Of a stretch of 64,000 nt of DNA, positions 647-53,543 are shown one piece after another. A model generated the notes under the pieces. The model was not told where the DNA came from. It did not search any database and worked only from the letters and a program-made list of their open reading frames with translations. Origin of the DNA: Thermoplasmata archaeon. Its GTDB lineage: Archaea > Thermoplasmatota > Thermoplasmata > Lutacidiplasmatales > UBA184. The stretch is from assembly GCA_022750155.1 (NCBI GenBank), contig JAKIWG010000004.1:20783-84782 (forward strand). The letters are read 5' to 3'. How positions within the stretch are numbered: position 1 is the stretch's first letter; every line of letters begins with the position of its first letter. The position numbers were made by a program, and so were the translations under genes.

Positions 647-1576
647 CTAGGGAAGGGGCGAGAGCCTCGGCACGCTCTCCACTTCGAACGTCAGCTCCGC
701 GTCGTCGCCGTACCCGAAGAACGCCGGGGCGAACGCCGTGAGGGGCGCGAGGTTGGGGATCGGCCCCGGGACGGTGGGTTCGAGTCGCTCGGGCTCCTGG
801 ACCGGGATCGGCCGCTCGAAGTGGATCGGCGCGAACGTGCCTACGCGGGACCGGCGGGTCGCCTCGAGCGCCGCCTCGGCGGGTACCAGGAACGTATCCT
901 CCACGTGAGAGGCGACCAGGTCCGCCCAGTGTCGGTCGAGCTGGGTGAACGCGAGGGTCGGTTGGCTCCGCGCGACCGCCTGATTGTCCAGGACCTCGAG
1001 CGTCGCGAGTCCCTGGTGCTGCTTGTCGACGAACGCGTCGACGAAGTGCAGGCGAGCGATGGCGCGCTCGGCCATCGCACGGCGCTCGGGCTCACATGCG
1101 AAGGGCTTGATCACGAAGAGCGAGACGACCTCAGAGGACCGCGCCGCCGCCCGCAGGACGACCGGCAACGCGCCCGTGCCCGCTCCGCCCCCCAGGCTGG
1201 CCAGGATCGTGACGAATGGAGCGCCCTCGAACAGGCGGTGCAGCGCCGGTTCCGCGGCCCGTGCGAGGATGCCCCCGACGAGTGCGGAGCCTCCGGTGTC
1301 GCCTTCGACCCCCGTCTCCGGTCCGAGGCACACCTGGCGGTCGAACTCTTCGGCGCCCTGCACGCGGGTGTCGCAGTTGATCGCGACCGTCTCCAGGTAG
1401 CGGGTGTGGCGACGGGCGATACGGGCGCCGATGCGAATGGCTCCGCCGCCGACGCAGACCAGGAGGAATCGAATGTCGTGGCCGAGGGCCAGGTCGTGGG
1501 CGATCGCCCCTCCCGCCTCGTCTACGCTTCCGGTCGCCCGATCGGGAATCCGCTCATCTCTTTCGGCTTCGTGCAT
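647..1576 (-). CDS. Divergent FtsZ/tubulin-superfamily GTPase lacking the canonical C-terminal domain
   Basis: Motifs VCVGGGAIRIGARIA (G-box), AINCDTRV (cf. FtsZ AxNTDxQ), SLGGGAGTGALP (tubulin signature GGGTG[TS]G variant), FVIKPFACEPERR (cf. VTKPFxFEGxxR) and QLDRHWADLV (T7-like). Only about 90 Pro/Glu-rich residues follow the GTPase domain. Confidence 0.8.
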   Translation of the reverse strand: MHEAERDERIPDRATGSVDEAGGAIAHDLALGHDIRFLLVCVGGGAIRIGARIARRHTRYLETVAINCDTRVQGAEEFDRQVCLGPETGVEGDTGGSALVGGILARAAEPALHRLFEGAPFVTILASLGGGAGTGALPVVLRAAARSSEVVSLFVIKPFACEPERRAMAERAIARLHFVDAFVDKQHQGLATLEVLDNQAVARSQPTLAFTQLDRHWADLVASHVEDTFLVPAEAALEATRRSRVGTFAPIHFERPIPVQEPERLEPTVPGPIPNLAPLTAFAPAFFGYGDDAELTFEVESVPRLSPLP

Positions 1577-43534: not shown

Positions 43535-44626
43535 ATGCCGGAACCCACCTCGAAGCTGCAGCGAGATGCGGCTCGCAACATCGTGACCAAGTACCTCAAG
43601 GTCCGTGCAGGGGAGAACGCGATCATCGAGTCATGGAGCCACACCATACCGATGGCCTCGGCACTGGTCGATGAGGTTCGACGAGTGGGGGGCAGAGCCC
43701 TACTCGTCCACGAGGACGAGAACGCGTGGTGGCGCGCGATCGACCGGCGGCAGAGCAAGCTCCTCGGCGCCTCGAATGCTCCGGAGTGGGCCGCGATGAA
43801 GGCCGCGGACGTCTACGTGATGTTCTGGGGTCCGGGCGATACCGACCGCATCGAGCAGCTTGCGGAGAAGACCTTCGACGAGGCGCTCGCCTGGAACTGG
43901 CCCTGGTATGCGGCCGCCCGGAGGGCGGGACTCCGCGGTGGGCGGATGACCGCGGGGTTCGTGACCGAAGGCCGCGCCCGAAAGTGGGGCGTGGACCGAG
44001 CGCAGTGGGAGGAGCGCATGCTGAAGGCATGTCTCGTCGACCCGGAGGAGATCGCCAAGACCGGGGCTCGGCTCCTCAAGTCCCTCGCGGGAGGAAAGAA
44101 GGTCCGGATCACCCACTCCAACGGAACCGACCTGGAGCTCGCTCTCTCCGGGGTCGCTCCGAGGGTTCACGACGGGAGACCCCACGCCAACGACAAGCGA
44201 TACGGCCCCTATCGCATGATGGCGACCTTCCCCGAGGGCCGCGCCGAGGTGGGCCTCGAAGCAACGGTCGCGGAGGGGACGTTCCGGGCCAACCGTCGGA
44301 CCAATATCTGGTGGTACACCCACTCCGGGGGAACGCTCGAATTCGCCGGCGGCAAGCTGACCGCCTTTTCGTTCGAGGATGGCGAGGAAGAGTTCGTCCG
44401 TCAGTACCATCACGGGAAGGCGGGCAAGGACCGTCCCAGCCAGCTCAAGCTCGGGCTGAACCCGGCCGTCACGGACGTGCCGAATCTGGAAAACATCGAA
44501 CGCGGCTGCGTGTCCTTGGTTCTCGGAGGCAACGAAAAGGCGAACTTCATGAGTTGGTTTACGCTCGCCGGCTCGGAGATCGAGGTCGACGGTACCCCGG
44601 TCATCCGCGCCGGAAAGATCCTCTGA
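43535..44626 (+). CDS. M29-family aminopeptidase (AmpS/aminopeptidase T-like)
   Basis: Length (363 aa) and the N-terminal pattern 'AARNIVTKYLKVRAGENAIIESW..ALVDEVRRVGG' resemble COG2309 aminopeptidases. Assigned by eye only. Confidence 0.6.
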   Translation: MPEPTSKLQRDAARNIVTKYLKVRAGENAIIESWSHTIPMASALVDEVRRVGGRALLVHEDENAWWRAIDRRQSKLLGASNAPEWAAMKAADVYVMFWGPGDTDRIEQLAEKTFDEALAWNWPWYAAARRAGLRGGRMTAGFVTEGRARKWGVDRAQWEERMLKACLVDPEEIAKTGARLLKSLAGGKKVRITHSNGTDLELALSGVAPRVHDGRPHANDKRYGPYRMMATFPEGRAEVGLEATVAEGTFRANRRTNIWWYTHSGGTLEFAGGKLTAFSFEDGEEEFVRQYHHGKAGKDRPSQLKLGLNPAVTDVPNLENIERGCVSLVLGGNEKANFMSWFTLAGSEIEVDGTPVIRAGKIL

Positions 44627-45749: not shown

Positions 45750-45932
45750 ATGACCGGGCGTTTCGTGCTCGTGCATGAGGACGAGCTCGTGGGCGTGTTC
45801 GCGACGGAGCACGAGGCCGTGCGAAGGGGGTTCGACCTGTTGGGCGCCGTTCCGTTCCTCGTGAGGGAGGTGCCGGCCGCCCCTCCGGGGGGCCGTCCCG
45901 CCCGGACCGGGACGCGAGAGGCCCCTCCATGA
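45750..45932 (+). CDS. 60-aa miniprotein translationally coupled to the aspartic protease gene
   Basis: ATG at 45750; ATGA overlap with the next gene. 'RFVLVHEDELVGVFATEHEAVRRGFDLLGAVPFLVREV' is a compact beta-alpha-beta-like unit. High GC3. Confidence 0.55.
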   Translation: MTGRFVLVHEDELVGVFATEHEAVRRGFDLLGAVPFLVREVPAAPPGGRPARTGTREAPP

Positions 45933-46360
45933 TCACCATCGAGAACCCGCAGCTGCGCGAAACCGGCCCGATCCTCCCGATCCGCGTGGGGGTTTCAGAG
46001 GCCGAGGAGCTGGCCCTTCGAAGGGTCGGCAACCTCGTTCCCGAGTCGATCCCGGCCAACGCCCTCATCGACACCGGATCCGGCCGGAGCATCATCCAGC
46101 ACCAACTCGCGCAGACGCTCCACCTGACCCCGGTGGGGGTCGTGGAGTTCGATACCCCCGCCTCCGTCGACGTATCGGCGGTCGAGTATTACGCCCGATT
46201 CTGGCTCGCGGGAGGCGTGAGCTTCGAGTCGAAGGTGATGGAGGCCCCCCTGCCGGTTCCGAAGGTGCGGGCGCTGATTGGCCGCGACATCCTCGCGCTC
46301 GGGATCCTCACCTATGACGGGAAGGGTCGCAGGTTCTCCTTCGATTTCGGGACTCGTTGA
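45929..46360 (+). CDS. Retropepsin-like clan AA aspartic protease
   Basis: Catalytic 'ALIDTGSGRSII' (D-T/S-G) and the flap/dimer motif 'LIGRDILALG'. 143 aa, typical of prokaryotic single-lobe retropepsin-like proteases. Confidence 0.8.
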   Translation: MITIENPQLRETGPILPIRVGVSEAEELALRRVGNLVPESIPANALIDTGSGRSIIQHQLAQTLHLTPVGVVEFDTPASVDVSAVEYYARFWLAGGVSFESKVMEAPLPVPKVRALIGRDILALGILTYDGKGRRFSFDFGTR

Positions 46361-46469
46361 GCGTCCGGCCGAGGCCGAGCGTCGTCATGGGTTCGAGACA
46401 AGCGATTAGAACCCCCAGCCCCTAACCCAGTTGCCCCTCCCGCGCAGGGAGGTCAAGGACGGTCCGAGG

Positions 46470-46658
46470 ATGCCTATTCCCGAGGAGTTTGTCAAGAAAC
46501 GGACCGAGGTCACCATCAGCAAGGCATCCCTCCGTGAGCTCAGCTGCCGCGGATGCGGGGCGCGGATGGACGCGAAGAACATCAGCGGCGGGTACGCCAA
46601 GTGCGACTATTGCGGCCATATCTTTTCCCTGGAGGTAGAGGGCGGCTCCGCCCTCTAG
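46470..46658 (+). CDS. 62-aa zinc-ribbon protein, first gene of the AIM24 cluster
   Basis: CRGCGARM...CDYCGHIF (CxxC-17-CxxC). The ATG at 46470 is directly preceded by GAGG. Confidence 0.65.
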   Translation: MPIPEEFVKKRTEVTISKASLRELSCRGCGARMDAKNISGGYAKCDYCGHIFSLEVEGGSAL

Positions 46659-46720
46659 GTCACCCCCGGTGCGCGCTACGTCGTGCCGGCCGGATTTCTC
46701 TTCGAGAGGGGGGGCATAGG

Positions 46721-47341
46721 ATGGAGCTCGAGGTCGTGCCCGGTGTGGTCCCCTCCGTCCTCGCGACACTCGTGGGAGGCGAATCGATCTACTCCGAGCA
46801 CGGGATCGTGTTGTACAAGGAGGACTCGGTCAAGGTCGAGCGCAAGACCATTCACAGCGGCGGGCTCATGTCCACCCTCAAGCGGACCTCCGTCGGCGGC
46901 CTGCCGTTCTTCCTCGCAGCGTTCAACGGCCCAGGTCAGGTGGCGTTCTCCCGCGATGGGGTCGGGGAGGTCCGGGTCATGGAACTTGCCCAGGGTCAGG
47001 TCCTGGACGTGGCGGAGGGTTCTCTCGTCTGCGCCGACAATCGGATCGCGTATGAGACGATCTACGTCAAGGGTGCCAGCGGCTGGATGGGGATGTGGAT
47101 GGACCAGCTCACCGGTCCGGGCAAGTTCGCGCTTCATGCCTACGGCAATTTCGTCACGCTCACCCTGCGACCGGGTGAATCGGTCGTGGCCGAGCGCCGT
47201 GCCATCCTCCACAAGACCCCGACGATGCACCTGACCCCAATGGTGCAGAAGCTCGGGGGAGGGCTGCTGGGTCGCATGCTGGCCCAGGAGATGTACGTGG
47301 TCGAGGGCCCCGGCACCGTCGCATTGCAGACCGGGCGGTGA
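46721..47341 (+). CDS. AIM24/TIGR00266 (DUF124) family protein, paralog 1
   Basis: Family pattern: 'GESIYSEHGIVLYKEDSV', 'GPGQVAFSRDGVGEVRVMELAQGQVLDVAEGSLVCAD', 'LTGPGKFALHAYGNFVTLTLRPGESVVAERRAIL' and 'GPGTVALQT'. Confidence 0.85.
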   Translation: MELEVVPGVVPSVLATLVGGESIYSEHGIVLYKEDSVKVERKTIHSGGLMSTLKRTSVGGLPFFLAAFNGPGQVAFSRDGVGEVRVMELAQGQVLDVAEGSLVCADNRIAYETIYVKGASGWMGMWMDQLTGPGKFALHAYGNFVTLTLRPGESVVAERRAILHKTPTMHLTPMVQKLGGGLLGRMLAQEMYVVEGPGTVALQTGR

Positions 47342-47345
47342 TCCG

Positions 47346-47993
47346 ATGTCGAAGATGGACCACATCGGCGACGTGGCCCCCGCGCTATTGCTCCAGCTCG
47401 CGGCCGGGGAGAAGTCGCTCGTGCTCCTCGATTCCGTCAAGTACCGCGACCCGACGGTGAAGGTCGACCGGATCCGGCGGACCTTCCCCAACCCGACCGG
47501 CCAGTGGCCCACGCAGCTCGGGAGGTACTTCGAGACCCTCGAGGGGCCCGGCAGCGCCACGATCTCCACCGGTACGGTGGGCGAGGTGCGGCCCCAGTCG
47601 CTCGGAGCGGGGGAGTCGATCTTTCTGCACCACGCCTCCCTGCTCGCCCACGACGCCCAAATGGGGTTCGGCCTCGTCGTGCTGGCCGTCTATCAAGTCC
47701 CCGGGATGCAGCAGCCGTCATACCTGGAGGCGGTCCAGCTCACCGGCCCGGGCAACTACGCGTTCCAGACGCTCGGCAACGCCCTTACCTTCCAACTCAA
47801 GCCCGGGGAGACGATCCGCACCGTGCCCCATGCGCTCCTCGGTCTTTCCCCCGGGGTCGGGGTCCGGGTGAACATCTTCGGGGGCGCGCCGAACTTCCCG
47901 ACGAACCACTATTTCCCGCTGCTGGACGTCGTCGGGCCGGGTACGGTCATGGTCCACAGCGGCGAGTTCTTCATGGAGGGACCGAGGGAATGA
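47346..47993 (+). CDS. Divergent AIM24-like protein, paralog 2
   Basis: Same three-part pattern (GPGSATISTGTVGEV..GESIFLHHASLLAHD; LTGPGNYAFQTLGNALTFQLKPGETIRTVPHALL; GPGTVMVHSG) but much more diverged. It starts 4 bp after paralog 1. Confidence 0.75.
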   Translation: MSKMDHIGDVAPALLLQLAAGEKSLVLLDSVKYRDPTVKVDRIRRTFPNPTGQWPTQLGRYFETLEGPGSATISTGTVGEVRPQSLGAGESIFLHHASLLAHDAQMGFGLVVLAVYQVPGMQQPSYLEAVQLTGPGNYAFQTLGNALTFQLKPGETIRTVPHALLGLSPGVGVRVNIFGGAPNFPTNHYFPLLDVVGPGTVMVHSGEFFMEGPRE

Positions 47994-48637
47994 AGTTCAC
48001 CGTCCAGGGGGGCTACATCCCCAACGCGCTCACCGAGCTGGGACCCGACGAGCAGGTCTACTGCGAGGCGGGGGTGATGGTCTACTGCGACCCGACGATC
48101 CGGTTCCACCAGCGGGCGATGATCCAGGGCGGGATCGGTCGTTCGCTCAAGCGGAGCCTCATCGGGGGAGTGCCGTTCTACATGCATACGTACCTCGGAC
48201 CGGGATACGCGGCGTTCAGCCGCTCGGAACCCGGCGAGGTCCGGGTCATCGAGCTCGCGGCCGGCCAGATCCTCGACGTCGCCGAGCATTCCCTCCTGCT
48301 CGCCTCCTCCACGATCCAGTACGACACGGTCTACGTCAAGGGAACGGGCCGCATCGGCCGGATGATCGGGTTCTGGATGGACCGCCTCGCCGGCCCCGGC
48401 ACGGTCGCCGTCCACGGGCACGGCAACATCCTGAGCTTCAACCTGCCGGCCGGCGAGGTGTTCGACGTCGACCACGGGGCCGTCCTGATGAAGGACGATT
48501 CCGTCACGATGCAGGCGTTCAACCAATCGCTCGGCGGCGGGCTGATGGGTTCCGCGATGAGCTACGAAGCGATGCGGATCTCCGGACCCGGGCACCTGTG
48601 GTTGCAGACCCTCGACCCGTCGCTCCCCCGGCGCTAG
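47990..48637 (+). CDS. AIM24/TIGR00266 family protein, paralog 3
   Basis: 'EQVYCEAGVMVYCDPTI', 'GPGYAAFSRSEPGEVRVIELAAGQILDVAEHSLL', 'LAGPGTVAVHGHGNILSFNLPAGEVFDVDHGAVL' and 'GPGHLWLQT'. ATGA overlap with paralog 2. Confidence 0.85.
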   Translation: MKFTVQGGYIPNALTELGPDEQVYCEAGVMVYCDPTIRFHQRAMIQGGIGRSLKRSLIGGVPFYMHTYLGPGYAAFSRSEPGEVRVIELAAGQILDVAEHSLLLASSTIQYDTVYVKGTGRIGRMIGFWMDRLAGPGTVAVHGHGNILSFNLPAGEVFDVDHGAVLMKDDSVTMQAFNQSLGGGLMGSAMSYEAMRISGPGHLWLQTLDPSLPRR

Positions 48638-49673: not shown

Positions 49674-52600
49674 TCACGCCGGGGGGTCTCGGGGGCGCCT
49701 CCGGGGCCAGATCGTACGCACGGCGGCACCGATCAGAGCCCCCAGCACCCCAGTGGCGGCGATCGCGACCCACCCCGCGCCTCCCAGGTCGGACCCCCCT
49801 GTGATCGGGGCCGCCCCGGCCGAGGGCAGGACCTCCAACGAGGCGCTGCCGTTCACGACCTCCCCCGAGGCGTCCGTCACGCGCACCCCCACGGAATACT
49901 CCCCGGTCCGCGACGGAGTGCAGGTCAACGCCGGTGCGTTCGCACTCGCGCACCCGGGGGGCAGGCCGGAATAGTTGAATCGGAACGGTCCCACGCCCCC
50001 GCTCCAGTTGGCGACCAGCACGGTCGTACCACCTAGTTGGAGGGGGCTCGGGTCGACCCAGAACGAGGCCAGCACGAGCGGAGCCGCCACGCCGACCGCC
50101 CCCACCACGAGCTGGCAGCGGGCGCGAGCGGAGTCACCTCCGGAATCGGAGACGGTGAGCCAGACGGAGAACGTCCCGACCTCGCCCGGGGTGCACGGCA
50201 GGACCGAAGTGTTCAGGGACCCGCATCCGCTCGGCAATCCCGAATACCCGTACGCGAGCGGCCCCGCTCCCCCCGTCGCGTTCACGAGGAACGCCGTGGA
50301 CTCCCCCGGGTACACGGGGTCGGGCTGAGGCACGAATCCGCGGATGACCAGGCCGCCACCGCCCGTCACTGGATAGACCATGAGTCCGGTCGCCAGCGTG
50401 GTGGATTCTCCGAGCGCGTCCGTGACCGTCAACTGGATCGAGTACGTCCCCGCGGCCCCGGGGACGCACGCCAACTGGCTCTGATCGGCAGTTCCGCAGG
50501 GCGTCGGCAAGCCCGTATAGGTGTACGAGAGCGCCCCGTGGCCGCCCGTGGCCACGGCGGTGATACTGGTCGAAGTCCCCAGGGTCACCGCCGGCGGCGT
50601 CACCGAAAAGGTCGTGACCTGGGGCCGACCCACCGCGCCGGCCGAGGTGACGACCAGGGAGAGTACGGCCACCGTCACCACGGCGTCGGCGTCGGTCACG
50701 GTCGTGTTGACCGCAAAGATCCCCAAAGCGAGTGGGGTGCACGGAAGCCGGGCGGCGTCCTGGGACGCGCACCCCGCGGGCAGGCCAGCATACGCGTACG
50801 AGTAGGGCGATACCCCCCCCGTCACGACGCTTTGCAGAACGGTCTGGTTCCCGAGGACGAGCCGTGAGGGGGTCGCATTGAACGACACCAAAGATGGCCC
50901 CGGCACGACCCGGAGCGGGAGGATGGCCCCCGACGAGTTTCCGGCCGAGTCCGTGACGTTGAGGGCGATCGTGAAGTTCCCCGTGACGGCGGGCTTGCAC
51001 CGGAGGCTCGCCGAATCGGCCGTGGGACACCCCGCGGGGAGCCCCGCATATTGGTAGGATAGCGGCAGGTGGGAGTCGGTGACGTTCGCCACGATCGTAG
51101 TGAGGGTGCCGACGTCGAGAGTGGAAGGGGAGGCGGTGAACGAGCGGACGGACGGCTGCGACGCGGGTGCTCGGGTCCAGGTCCATTCGTCGCTGCACAC
51201 GTACTTCAGACATCCCGGGCCGTAGAGGCCCGGAACTCCTGACCCCTCGGAGTTGGTACCGCCCAGGAGCACTCCGCCGGTCAAGGAGGGGTCGTAGGTG
51301 AACACCGCCCCGCTGCGATTCGGGGGGGCGACCGGGGGGAACCCCTCGAGCCAACTCCCGTTCTGGAACGCCCATGTGTCGCCTAGCCAGGTCAAGGCGC
51401 CGGCCCCGCTTCCCCCGAACATCACGACGAGGCCGTCGTGGGGATCCCCCATCATCGCGCCCCCGGTACGGGAAGGAGGCGCGGTCCCGGCGCGAGCCGT
51501 GAGATTCGTCCACGTTCCCCCGGCGAAACCCCAGGTCTGGCTGGTGCTCGTGGACCAAGAGTACCCCGGAACGGTCGCCTGGAACGTGCCGAAAAGGAGT
51601 ACGTATCCGTCCGCGGAGTCGTAGGCTAACGGATTCGTCGAGCTGGCAGGAGGAGCCAGCGCGGAGCTGGCGGTCACATTCGACCAGGTGCCCGCGCGGA
51701 AGGTCCAAGTGTCGCGGTACCCGTTGGCGAACGGAGTCCCGCGCAGACTATCACCGCCGAACAACAGGGCGAAGCCGTCGCCTTCGTCATAGACCAGCCC
51801 CTGGCCGGATCGGGGGGACGGGGCGACGTTCGTCGAAAGCTGGGTCCAAGCTCCGGACTTGAACTCCCAAGAGTCGTTGAGCGCGCCAGACGCCCCTCCG
51901 CCTCCGAAGAGCAGGACGTACCCGTCCGTCGCATCGTAAACCATGCCCGCGCGGTCGCGCGGCGTCGGGAACGTCGTCGGTTGGAGGAGGGTCCATCGGC
52001 CCCCGGCGAACGTCCAGGAATCGTTCAGCAGTCTCGGGGAGCAGGAACCCACCGAGGAGGGGCACGTCACTCCGCCGAAGAGCAATACATAGCCGTCGGT
52101 CGGGTCGTAGGTCATCGACGCGTCCAGGCGGGGGGACGGCTCGGGCCGGGTGAGATTCGTCCAGATACTGGAGTGGAGGCTCCACGTGTCGCTGAGGTCC
52201 GTGAAACCGGCTCCCCCGAACATCAGAAGATAGCCGTCGACCGCGTCGTACGCGGTCGCGGCGTCCAGTCGCTGGCGTGGCCCGGTGGAAAAACTCACCG
52301 GCGACCAGTTTCCTCCCTGGAAGGCCCAGGTGATCTCCGTTTGGCTCGAGTAACTCGACCAGTTGTACGCGTTCGTGTAGATCACCGCCCGGTCCGAGGC
52401 GTCGTAGGTGAAGGCGTCGGGCTGCGGAACCGGAGGGCTCTGCGAGGGGTGGAGCTTCGTCCAAACTCCGGCCGTGTACCTCCAGGTGTCGTTGAGGGGA
52501 GCGTAGACATTGTTGCTCGAGCCGCCGAACAGTACCACGTATCCGTCGATCGCGTCATAGGCGAACCCCGCGTCCGCGCGTGCGCTCGGTGGGTGCGAGG

Positions 52601-53543
52601 GGAAAACCTCCACCCACTGGCCCGCGGAGAACTCCCAGGTGTCGTTACAGAGCCCGCCGTTGGGGCAGGAGCTGTTGCGGCCCCCGAACAACAGCAGGTA
52701 GCCGTCGCCGGAGTCATTGGTCATGCTCGCGCCGTATCGCTCCGATGGGGACGCGGTCGGGTAGAGCTCCGTCCAACTGCCGCCCCGGAAGGTCCAAGTC
52801 TGCCCCGCCGAGGCGCACGCGCCGGCGCCATAGGGGCTGTTCCCCGAGGCGAGATAGACCACATACCCGTCGGCGTCGTCGTAGGACAGGCTGGAACCCG
52901 GACAGTTTTCCGGAGAGGGGGCCGTGTATAGGGGGGACCAGTTCCCGGATCGGTAGATCCACGTGTCGTTGCCCGATGGCGCCCCATACGCGCCGGCCGG
53001 GGACCCCAGCAGCAGTACGTAGCCGTCGAACGCGTCGTACGTGAGCTCGAAATCGTAGGCGGATTGAGGAGGGGGGGTTCCTCCGGCCTGACGCCAACTC
53101 GAGGGATTCGCAGCCAGTGCGGCGCGGGAGGCGAGCAACCGTTCGGTCCGACATGCTCCCCCTCCGACCGCCCCATCTCCGTGACAGATCCCTCCCGGGT
53201 GGGCGCCCGAAGGGGCGGCATGATCGAGCGATCGCTGCGCTTCTCGAAGGAGCTCGGACCCGGCCGAGTGGCCCGCGAGCCGGAGGGGTGAGAGAGCGTT
53301 CGGGCCGGCCGTGCCCGCAGTCGCTGCCGTGAGGGAGGCGGCGCTCCCGGAGATGTCCCCCGGGAGGACCAGCAGGGCGACGATCATGGCCGACCCGACG
53401 AACGCGAGGCAACCGGGTCGACCGGTGAGTGACCGGCGTACGGATCGGCGGAGGGCCAACACGACCCGGAGTGCGCGTAGCCCCTTATGCGGCGCTCGCG
53501 TCAAAATGCCGCGAATATTCCGTCGGCACGCTCCGGCGGGCAC
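49674..53543 (-). CDS. Giant surface protein: about 12 Kelch-type blades (two propellers), five Ig-like 'GLPxGC' repeats and a C-terminal TM anchor
   Basis: Recurrent 'DGYVLLFGG...W' blades. Five copies of 'Y.Y.GLP.GC....L.C.P...G.F.V...VTD..G' (putative-Ig/He_PIG-like). Terminal TM helix (WVAIAATGVLGALIGAAV). The ORF maximum starts at GTG 53543. A start near 53462 (GTG TTG) would give a cleaner RR-type signal peptide. Confidence 0.8.
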   Translation of the reverse strand: MPAGACRRNIRGILTRAPHKGLRALRVVLALRRSVRRSLTGRPGCLAFVGSAMIVALLVLPGDISGSAASLTAATAGTAGPNALSPLRLAGHSAGSELLREAQRSLDHAAPSGAHPGGICHGDGAVGGGACRTERLLASRAALAANPSSWRQAGGTPPPQSAYDFELTYDAFDGYVLLLGSPAGAYGAPSGNDTWIYRSGNWSPLYTAPSPENCPGSSLSYDDADGYVVYLASGNSPYGAGACASAGQTWTFRGGSWTELYPTASPSERYGASMTNDSGDGYLLLFGGRNSSCPNGGLCNDTWEFSAGQWVEVFPSHPPSARADAGFAYDAIDGYVVLFGGSSNNVYAPLNDTWRYTAGVWTKLHPSQSPPVPQPDAFTYDASDRAVIYTNAYNWSSYSSQTEITWAFQGGNWSPVSFSTGPRQRLDAATAYDAVDGYLLMFGGAGFTDLSDTWSLHSSIWTNLTRPEPSPRLDASMTYDPTDGYVLLFGGVTCPSSVGSCSPRLLNDSWTFAGGRWTLLQPTTFPTPRDRAGMVYDATDGYVLLFGGGGASGALNDSWEFKSGAWTQLSTNVAPSPRSGQGLVYDEGDGFALLFGGDSLRGTPFANGYRDTWTFRAGTWSNVTASSALAPPASSTNPLAYDSADGYVLLFGTFQATVPGYSWSTSTSQTWGFAGGTWTNLTARAGTAPPSRTGGAMMGDPHDGLVVMFGGSGAGALTWLGDTWAFQNGSWLEGFPPVAPPNRSGAVFTYDPSLTGGVLLGGTNSEGSGVPGLYGPGCLKYVCSDEWTWTRAPASQPSVRSFTASPSTLDVGTLTTIVANVTDSHLPLSYQYAGLPAGCPTADSASLRCKPAVTGNFTIALNVTDSAGNSSGAILPLRVVPGPSLVSFNATPSRLVLGNQTVLQSVVTGGVSPYSYAYAGLPAGCASQDAARLPCTPLALGIFAVNTTVTDADAVVTVAVLSLVVTSAGAVGRPQVTTFSVTPPAVTLGTSTSITAVATGGHGALSYTYTGLPTPCGTADQSQLACVPGAAGTYSIQLTVTDALGESTTLATGLMVYPVTGGGGLVIRGFVPQPDPVYPGESTAFLVNATGGAGPLAYGYSGLPSGCGSLNTSVLPCTPGEVGTFSVWLTVSDSGGDSARARCQLVVGAVGVAAPLVLASFWVDPSPLQLGGTTVLVANWSGGVGPFRFNYSGLPPGCASANAPALTCTPSRTGEYSVGVRVTDASGEVVNGSASLEVLPSAGAAPITGGSDLGGAGWVAIAATGVLGALIGAAVRTIWPRRRPRDPPA

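Follow-up and report, generated by a model that had tools for sequence, protein, structure and literature searches.

A conserved triplet of AIM24 paralogues with a small zinc-ribbon gene in uncultured Thermoplasmata: a candidate hetero-oligomeric complex

Why would an archaeon keep three AIM24 genes one behind the other, with a small zinc-ribbon gene beside them? The question is raised by a 64,000-nucleotide stretch of DNA (the window) from a Thermoplasmata archaeon (assembly GCA_022750155.1, contig JAKIWG010000004.1, positions 20,783 to 84,782, forward strand), which carries such a cluster at window positions 46470-48637. For bacterial AIM24 proteins no physiological role has been established in any case (PMC6677890), and arCOG01907 stands among the widely conserved uncharacterised archaeal families (PMC6393860); the literature thus agrees with an earlier, sequence-only reading of this DNA, which had described AIM24 as a family without known function in prokaryotes. 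Our answer, put forward tentatively and with slightly more doubt than trust, is that the locus is a self-contained four-gene operon whose AIM24 products form a non-enzymatic hetero-oligomer, with the small zinc ribbon as an accessory subunit. This keeps the core idea of the earlier reading, in reduced form. The main rival explanations are independently acting paralogues and a regulatory zinc ribbon; a defence system and a larger, six-gene module are unlikely.

The AIM24 triplet and its conservation

In this DNA of ~69% G+C, all four genes lie on the plus strand. The zinc-ribbon gene (46470-46658, with the ATG at 46470 and the stop at 46658) encodes 62 amino acids with the cysteine pattern C26xxC29...C45xxC48, as read from the listing of open reading frames (ORFs) and the sequence. 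After a gap of 62 bp it is followed by A1, the first AIM24 paralogue (46721-47341, 206 amino acids), after a further 4 bp by the diverged, fast-evolving A2 (47346-47993, 215 amino acids), and then by A3 (47990-48637, 215 amino acids), the most conserved of the three, the start of which overlaps the A2 stop codon (ATGA). Two of the start codons were backed by homologues, since those of the zinc ribbon all open with MP[IV]PEEF and those of A1 with MELE[VI]VPG. The strand, the gaps and the overlap had been described in exactly this way in the sequence-only reading, and other elements of its description were borne out as well. The profile search placed all three paralogues in the AIM24 family: against PF01987 (gathering threshold 25.7 bits) A1, A2 and A3 scored 104.1, 38.9 and 121.5 bits, respectively, over nearly the full 205-position model. 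A1 and A3, which it had called alike, are 41% identical, compared with 27-28% between A2, called diverged, and either of them. The tripartite GPG pattern that it had pointed out is a true internal triplication, visible as register-shifted self-alignments in BLAST and as three six-strand units in the AlphaFold2 model of A2 (predicted local distance difference test score, pLDDT, 89.7). Its TIGR00266 label had to be dropped: with 33.9 bits for A1, 42.7 bits for A3 and no match for A2, all three paralogues missed the curated cut-off of 96.6 bits, which rules out membership, and the partial matches of A1 and A3 reflect distant homology.

Foldseek with the A2 model returned only 1yox and 1pg6 from PDB (E = 2e-9 to 8e-8, TM ~0.7), and the A3 sequence itself matched 1yox at E = 3e-11. 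Both entries are structural-genomics proteins of unknown function, and the AIM24 fold has been described as three TRAP-like beta-sandwich repeats (PMC6677890). All three paralogues are taken to be all-beta proteins of this build. A1 and A3 retained the Gly-rich loops of the family (GGLMSTLKRTSVGG, GASGWMGMW and LGGGLLG), and in the AIM24 alignment A2 has Pro-rich segments in place of all three of them. If the loops formed a common functional face, A2 would be without that face. In an alignment of A1, A2 and A3 with orthologues from the second operon type (see below) and with bacterial and haloarchaeal AIM24 proteins, the family-wide invariant columns comprised G, P, L and one E, a pattern that looks structural rather than catalytic. 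As separate observations, most bacterial AIM24 proteins have a related Gly-rich form of the three loops, and the middle repeat of A2 carries an insertion of 4-5 residues. A weak A2-like tblastn match at window positions 782-1051 lay in a spurious frame and was discarded as a chance hit.

Related loci were gathered via searches with A2, the zinc ribbon and A3, contig look-ups and scans of GTDB genomes and Joint Genome Institute (JGI) metagenomes. They amounted to ~35 non-redundant loci in metagenomes and in metagenome-assembled genomes labelled Thermoplasmata, 'Methanobacteriota' or 'Euryarchaeota', derived from soil or peat where the source was evident. The A2 search gave 28 homologue clusters and the A3 search 102 orthologue clusters at at least 55% identity; A1 orthologues (51-92% identity) hold the first AIM24 position in all loci. 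According to the tblastn map, the order of the three AIM24 genes was unchanged wherever the contig was long enough, and the spacing between them was -4 to +10 nucleotides in every locus. No triplet deprived of one member was seen among these ~35 loci, across deep divergence.

The loci fall into three operon types that differ in the place of the zinc-ribbon gene. Type I, with the zinc-ribbon gene in front of A1, A2 and A3, comprises the window and about 11 other loci. In type II (about 17 loci) the zinc-ribbon gene stands between A1 and A2, at -4 to +17 nucleotides from A2. Type III (5 loci) consists of A1, A2 and A3 with no zinc-ribbon gene within 4.6-8 kb, and a TATA-like box lies directly 5' of A1. 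The type III loci did not form one clean clade in the trees, and this scattering indicates repeated loss or relocation of the adjacent zinc-ribbon gene.

The neighbour-joining tree of 82 AIM24 sequences split cleanly into three clades, one for each of the gene positions 1, 2 and 3, the A2 clade having the longest branches. Each positional clade includes both major operon types; hence, the duplications predate the diversification of the clade of archaea that carries the operon, and all three copies have been retained since. Recent lineage-specific duplication, which the sequence-only reading had set against its own proposal, is itself ruled out by these three old orthologue clades. The orthologue trees were congruent across the three paralogues. 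Purifying selection acts on all four genes, the ratios of nonsynonymous to synonymous substitution rates (dN/dS) against the closest relative being 0.05 for the zinc ribbon, 0.08 for A1, 0.14 for A2 and 0.06 for A3. Evolution is fastest at position 2: the columns with at least 90% conservation number 44 in A2, 73 in A1 and 84 in A3, and in the deepest comparisons identity was 33-37% for A2, 51-63% for A1 and A3, and 63-75% for the zinc ribbon. The operon has most likely been inherited vertically, within a single clade of uncultured Thermoplasmata that have high-GC genomes and come from soil, peat and acid-sulfate soil. The search for recurrent triplets with a zinc-ribbon gene across archaea and bacteria, which had been proposed on the basis of the window alone, ended in a divided result: the cluster recurs among the ~35 Thermoplasmata loci, within that one clade only.

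The zinc-ribbon protein

The word-based search yielded 55 homologous zinc-ribbon clusters with 58-93% identity. When 1.84 billion representative proteins were searched exhaustively with HMMER, only three full-length representatives and one fragment emerged, the remaining matches covering the generic ribbon part alone. Ten of the longer profile matches were scanned as candidates for fusions of a zinc-ribbon homologue with AIM24; none of the ten contained an AIM24 domain, and they were generic ribbons. Nothing exceeded the cut-offs in Pfam or NCBIfam (best scores 17 and 16.5 bits, respectively), and the scores against Zn_ribbon_3/4/5/8, Elf1, HypA, L37ae and RpoP were far under them. The protein thus represents a narrow clade-specific family, a new one among small proteins and absent from both databases, and it offers a tiny archaeal zinc finger with a clear genomic partner.

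The protein consists of a near-invariant N-terminal peptide, MPIPEEFVKKRTEVTISKASL, followed by the CxxC...CxxC ribbon. Twenty-two columns are invariant; both CxxC knuckles are present and do not vary. Across 29 loci, residues 1-21 (MPIPEEFVKKRTEVTIS[RK]ASL) vary little or not at all, and, except for K9 with its single codon, they are encoded by 2-7 different codons per position. The residues are thus fixed despite codon turnover, which means that the constraint acts on the protein. In the AlphaFold2 monomer model, of low confidence (pLDDT 67), the ribbon folds at residues 24-55 and the N-terminus is unstructured, as one would expect of a segment that folds on a partner. A docking role of the N-terminus may be proposed on these grounds.

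Which partner this might be is suggested by the neighbourhood, since every zinc-ribbon gene with enough flanking sequence adjoins AIM24 genes, either inside or next to the triplet. The co-conservation anticipated in the sequence-only reading stood in this direction and was not strict in the other, as five triplets have no zinc-ribbon gene nearby. The alternative is that the zinc ribbon, instead of being a structural subunit, is a small protein that binds nucleic acids or has a regulatory task, either governing the AIM24 operon or tying it to transcription or translation. Its weak, sub-threshold likeness to L37ae, RpoP, Elf1 and TFIIB-type ribbons, with which some JGI homologue labels concur, speaks for such a protein, and so do the variable position of the gene, its absence near the five type III triplets and the unchanged AIM24 genes of these loci. 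However, no family threshold was reached, the protein is near neutral (isoelectric point 7.7), and the strongest constraint falls on the N-terminal peptide outside the ribbon rather than on the ribbon. Moreover, the gene was never seen away from AIM24 genes, and in type II operons it lies -4 to +17 nucleotides from A2. A regulatory role was accordingly judged improbable.

A ribbon and an AIM24 domain were also found in one polypeptide. WP_341472007.1 of Candidatus Chlorohelix allophototropha (locus L023, 3755-4630) is composed of an N-terminal CxxC...CxC ribbon, a low-complexity linker and AIM24. Like the operon, it pairs a small CxxC-type ribbon with AIM24, but its ribbon sequence is unrelated and lacks the MPIPEEFVKKRTEVTIS peptide, and it is encoded by a single-copy gene on a bacterial plasmid. 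We regard this fusion as a weak, though independent, sign of cooperation between ribbons and AIM24 domains.

The proposed complex and what weighs against it

The co-assembly of A1, A2 and A3 is what we infer from the fixed gene order, the tight spacing and the retention of all the paralogues. In the mechanism that we propose, the three paralogues would be made together and in roughly equal amounts from the tightly spaced or overlapping genes, and they would assemble into a hetero-oligomeric AIM24 complex in which A1 and A3 have preserved the family's canonical Gly-rich loops and A2 may act as a diverged, specialised subunit. The zinc ribbon would be a small accessory subunit or adaptor, whose N-terminal peptide probably takes up its fold on a partner; the most plausible one is an AIM24 subunit. 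By analogy with all the characterised eukaryotic AIM24 proteins, the complex is suggested to be non-enzymatic and to support other assemblies, probably membrane-proximal ones, by scaffolding or stabilising them. Its role would be cellular, in housekeeping or stress. The more demanding version, an obligate four-subunit machine made of an A1·A2·A3 heterotrimer or a higher assembly with the zinc ribbon docked via its N-terminal peptide, is possible though doubtful; if true, no AIM24 complex would have been defined in prokaryotes before it. The partners of such a complex would in that case show what this pan-domain family did ancestrally, which might for example be the stabilisation of membrane-proximal assemblies.

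The analogy draws on several eukaryotic proteins. Yeast Aim24 is associated with MICOS, the system that organises contact sites and cristae in mitochondria (PMC3975624), Arabidopsis PAWH1 and PAWH2 with the Hrd1 complex of endoplasmic-reticulum-associated degradation (PMC6677890), and Neurospora EOP-1 and Podospora IDC4 with SO/MAK-1 cell-fusion signalling (PMC13075794). They share the AIM24 domain and are non-enzymatic, acting on complexes associated with membranes as partners or stabilisers; a paralogue pair (PAWH1/2) and self-interaction (EOP-1, PMC13075794) have been documented among them. The eukaryotic proteins carry disordered or transmembrane extensions, whereas the archaeal ones are bare AIM24 domains. 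The eukaryotic partners do not exist in archaea, and no zinc-ribbon partner has been described for the eukaryotic proteins.

A looser likeness connects each AIM24 repeat with the beta-sandwich of TRAP (PMC6677890), and the A2 model has three such units. In TRAP, the trp RNA-binding attenuation protein, 11-12 single-unit subunits form a ring to which tryptophan and RNA bind, whereas in AIM24 three units are joined in one chain. TRAP was not among the Foldseek matches of the A2 model.

The nearest relatives are the single-copy prokaryotic AIM24/DUF124 proteins (PF01987; 1YOX PA3696, 1PG6 SpyM3_0169; arCOG01907, e.g., TK0182), which belong to the same domain family and share with the triplet the three-repeat beta-sandwich fold, the single-domain architecture, the length of ~205-215 amino acids and the lack of transmembrane segments. 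Unlike them, the triplet has three old paralogues in fixed order in one operon with a dedicated zinc-ribbon gene, and A2 has lost the three Gly-rich loops. The comparison raises the question whether the three AIM24 proteins are rather sub-functionalised tandem paralogues acting separately, each being monomeric or homo-oligomeric and having a partner or ligand of its own, with only the shared promoter keeping them adjacent. AIM24 is overwhelmingly single-domain and single-copy elsewhere (more than 93% of AIM24 proteins have the AIM24 domain alone), and the solved and modelled structures have been described as monomers of three repeats (PMC6677890). The replacement of all three loops in A2 would fit a different specificity, and a solo A3-like gene exists. 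On the other side stand the strictly fixed gene order, the spacing of -4 to +10 nucleotides in every locus and the lack of any triplet that has lost a member, a pattern more typical of stoichiometric subunits. We therefore consider separately acting paralogues unlikely, though by no means far-fetched.

The proposed hetero-oligomeric complex has to be set against several observations that weigh against it. In addition to the monomeric description of the known structures, the solo gene just mentioned (locus L043, 5001-5660) is of A3 type and 57% identical to A3 of the window; upstream of it is a divergently oriented beta-helix gene, it is accompanied by neither A1 nor A2 nor a zinc-ribbon gene, and it lies near a contig end. 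The plasmid tblastn search returned 23 AIM24 records, 21 of them single-copy, and the five loci inspected were single genes; this sample is bacterial and haloarchaeal, biased and without chromosomes. With that reservation, AIM24 triplets were rejected as a general prokaryotic feature. Furthermore, the AIM24 genes of the type III loci keep almost all the columns conserved in the loci that contain the zinc-ribbon gene. A signature of zinc-ribbon loss was sought in these paralogues, and only 1-3 conservative changes in each, with no partner signal, were found. In type III the zinc ribbon is either dispensable or encoded elsewhere. Finally, the scaffold function is suggested solely by distant eukaryotic homologues.

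The reach of the findings is limited, as only a single clade, an uncultured one, has the module. Within it, three retained paralogues and a dedicated, extremely conserved mini-protein provide a natural interaction map and a concrete biochemical entry to the AIM24 family, as the map predicts both a set of proteins to co-express and a 21-residue peptide to mutate.

Operon limits and surroundings

The start of the operon is probably marked by a promoter-like box, AAGCGATTAGAACC, at positions 46400-46413 on the plus strand, 57-70 nucleotides 5' of the zinc-ribbon start codon. It looks like an archaeal promoter of the BRE/TATA type (BRE, transcription factor B recognition element), and its putative role would be to start a four-gene transcription unit. 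When the upstream regions of nine type I loci were aligned, a common AAGCTCTTAGAACC-like box appeared at the same distance from the zinc-ribbon start, and in the loci without the zinc-ribbon gene TATAAG or TTAATAT boxes were present at a similar distance 5' of A1. The placement of these boxes implies 5' leaders of ~30-40 nucleotides with G-rich ribosome-binding sites in these high-GC archaea. The sigma-70 and terminator scan uses bacterial models and was uninformative for the archaeal host. On a wider view, TATA-like boxes with the variants AAGCTCTTAGAACC, CTATAAGC and TTAATATC were noted 57-75 nucleotides 5' of the first gene of the operon, namely at 46400-46413 in the window, in L007-L015 (5' of the zinc-ribbon gene) and in L004, L013, L016 and L017 (5' of A1).

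The sequence-only reading had conceived of a larger module, in which two upstream genes belong together with the four. These are the ORF for a 60-amino-acid miniprotein (45750-45932, plus strand) and a gene for a retropepsin-like aspartic protease of 143 amino acids with a DTGS motif (45929-46360, plus strand), the likeness of which to known families stayed below the Pfam cut-offs (Asp_protease_2, 22.1 bits against 24.3; RVP, 17.2 bits against 20.7). The pair overlaps by ATGA and lies on the same strand as the operon, 109 bp upstream, and the protease gene stands likewise upstream in the closest relative, L007 (recovered a second time as L026), with 71% identity of the products. Beyond L007/L026, however, the tblastn map showed the protease in none of the ~35 related loci, where unrelated genes lie upstream. 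The miniprotein was not conserved even in L007, and the promoter-like box conserved among the type I loci sits inside the 109-bp gap. Because the two upstream genes are not co-conserved and the box separates them from the rest, the module comprises four genes, not six, and the larger module was abandoned as exceedingly improbable. As a stand-alone archaeal retropepsin-like protease, the product of 45929-46360 may merit separate attention.

A role in anti-virus defence or conflict, with a sensor and an effector for instance, was considered in the light of the flanking genes and of the database searches. Multi-gene modules of unknown function frequently turn out to be defence systems, and, according to PMC5822837 (citing Anantharaman et al. 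2012), some bacterial ter clusters, which confer resistance to tellurite, phages and colicins, include an AIM24/TIGR00266 gene. These clusters resemble the archaeal loci in placing an AIM24 gene within a multi-gene, stress-related cluster with tandem paralogues. In contrast to them, the archaeal loci have no TerD, TerB, TerC or TelA nearby, and Ter, defence or mobile genes were never recurrent in their flanks. PADLOC-DB v2 gave no match for A1, A2 and A3, and the hits of the zinc ribbon (Cas12f model, E = 0.038) and of the protease (E = 0.016) were at chance level. No relatives were found in phage records and IMG/VR. The congruent paralogue trees suggest vertical inheritance, and the strong purifying selection is the opposite of diversification. 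A defence function is thus very unlikely. The search of BFVD with the A2 model returned a single viral match, A0A076FMM9, an AIM24-domain protein encoded by Aureococcus anophagefferens virus, which belongs to the giant viruses and has a eukaryotic alga as its host.

No recurrent flanking partner and no defence-island or mobile-element signature was seen in the flanks of the loci examined, which differ between loci and resemble ordinary chromosomal DNA. The operon of the window is neighboured by genes for a DUF1684 protein, a pirin and a Kelch/PKD surface protein; the neighbours at other loci include RNA polymerase subunits, PurS/PurL, DinB, a MIP channel and transposases. Upstream of the region, a 363-amino-acid ORF at 43535-44626 (plus strand) had no Pfam match at E <= 1e-5. 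The predicted surface protein, encoded at 49674-53543 on the minus strand, is 1289 amino acids long and combines a Kelch beta-propeller and PKD-like repeats with a C-terminal hydrophobic anchor. In L044 a giant Kelch/PKD protein of similar kind lies close to the AIM24 operon, and in L001 the operon has PKD-repeat proteins in its vicinity; such proteins are probably simply common in this lineage.

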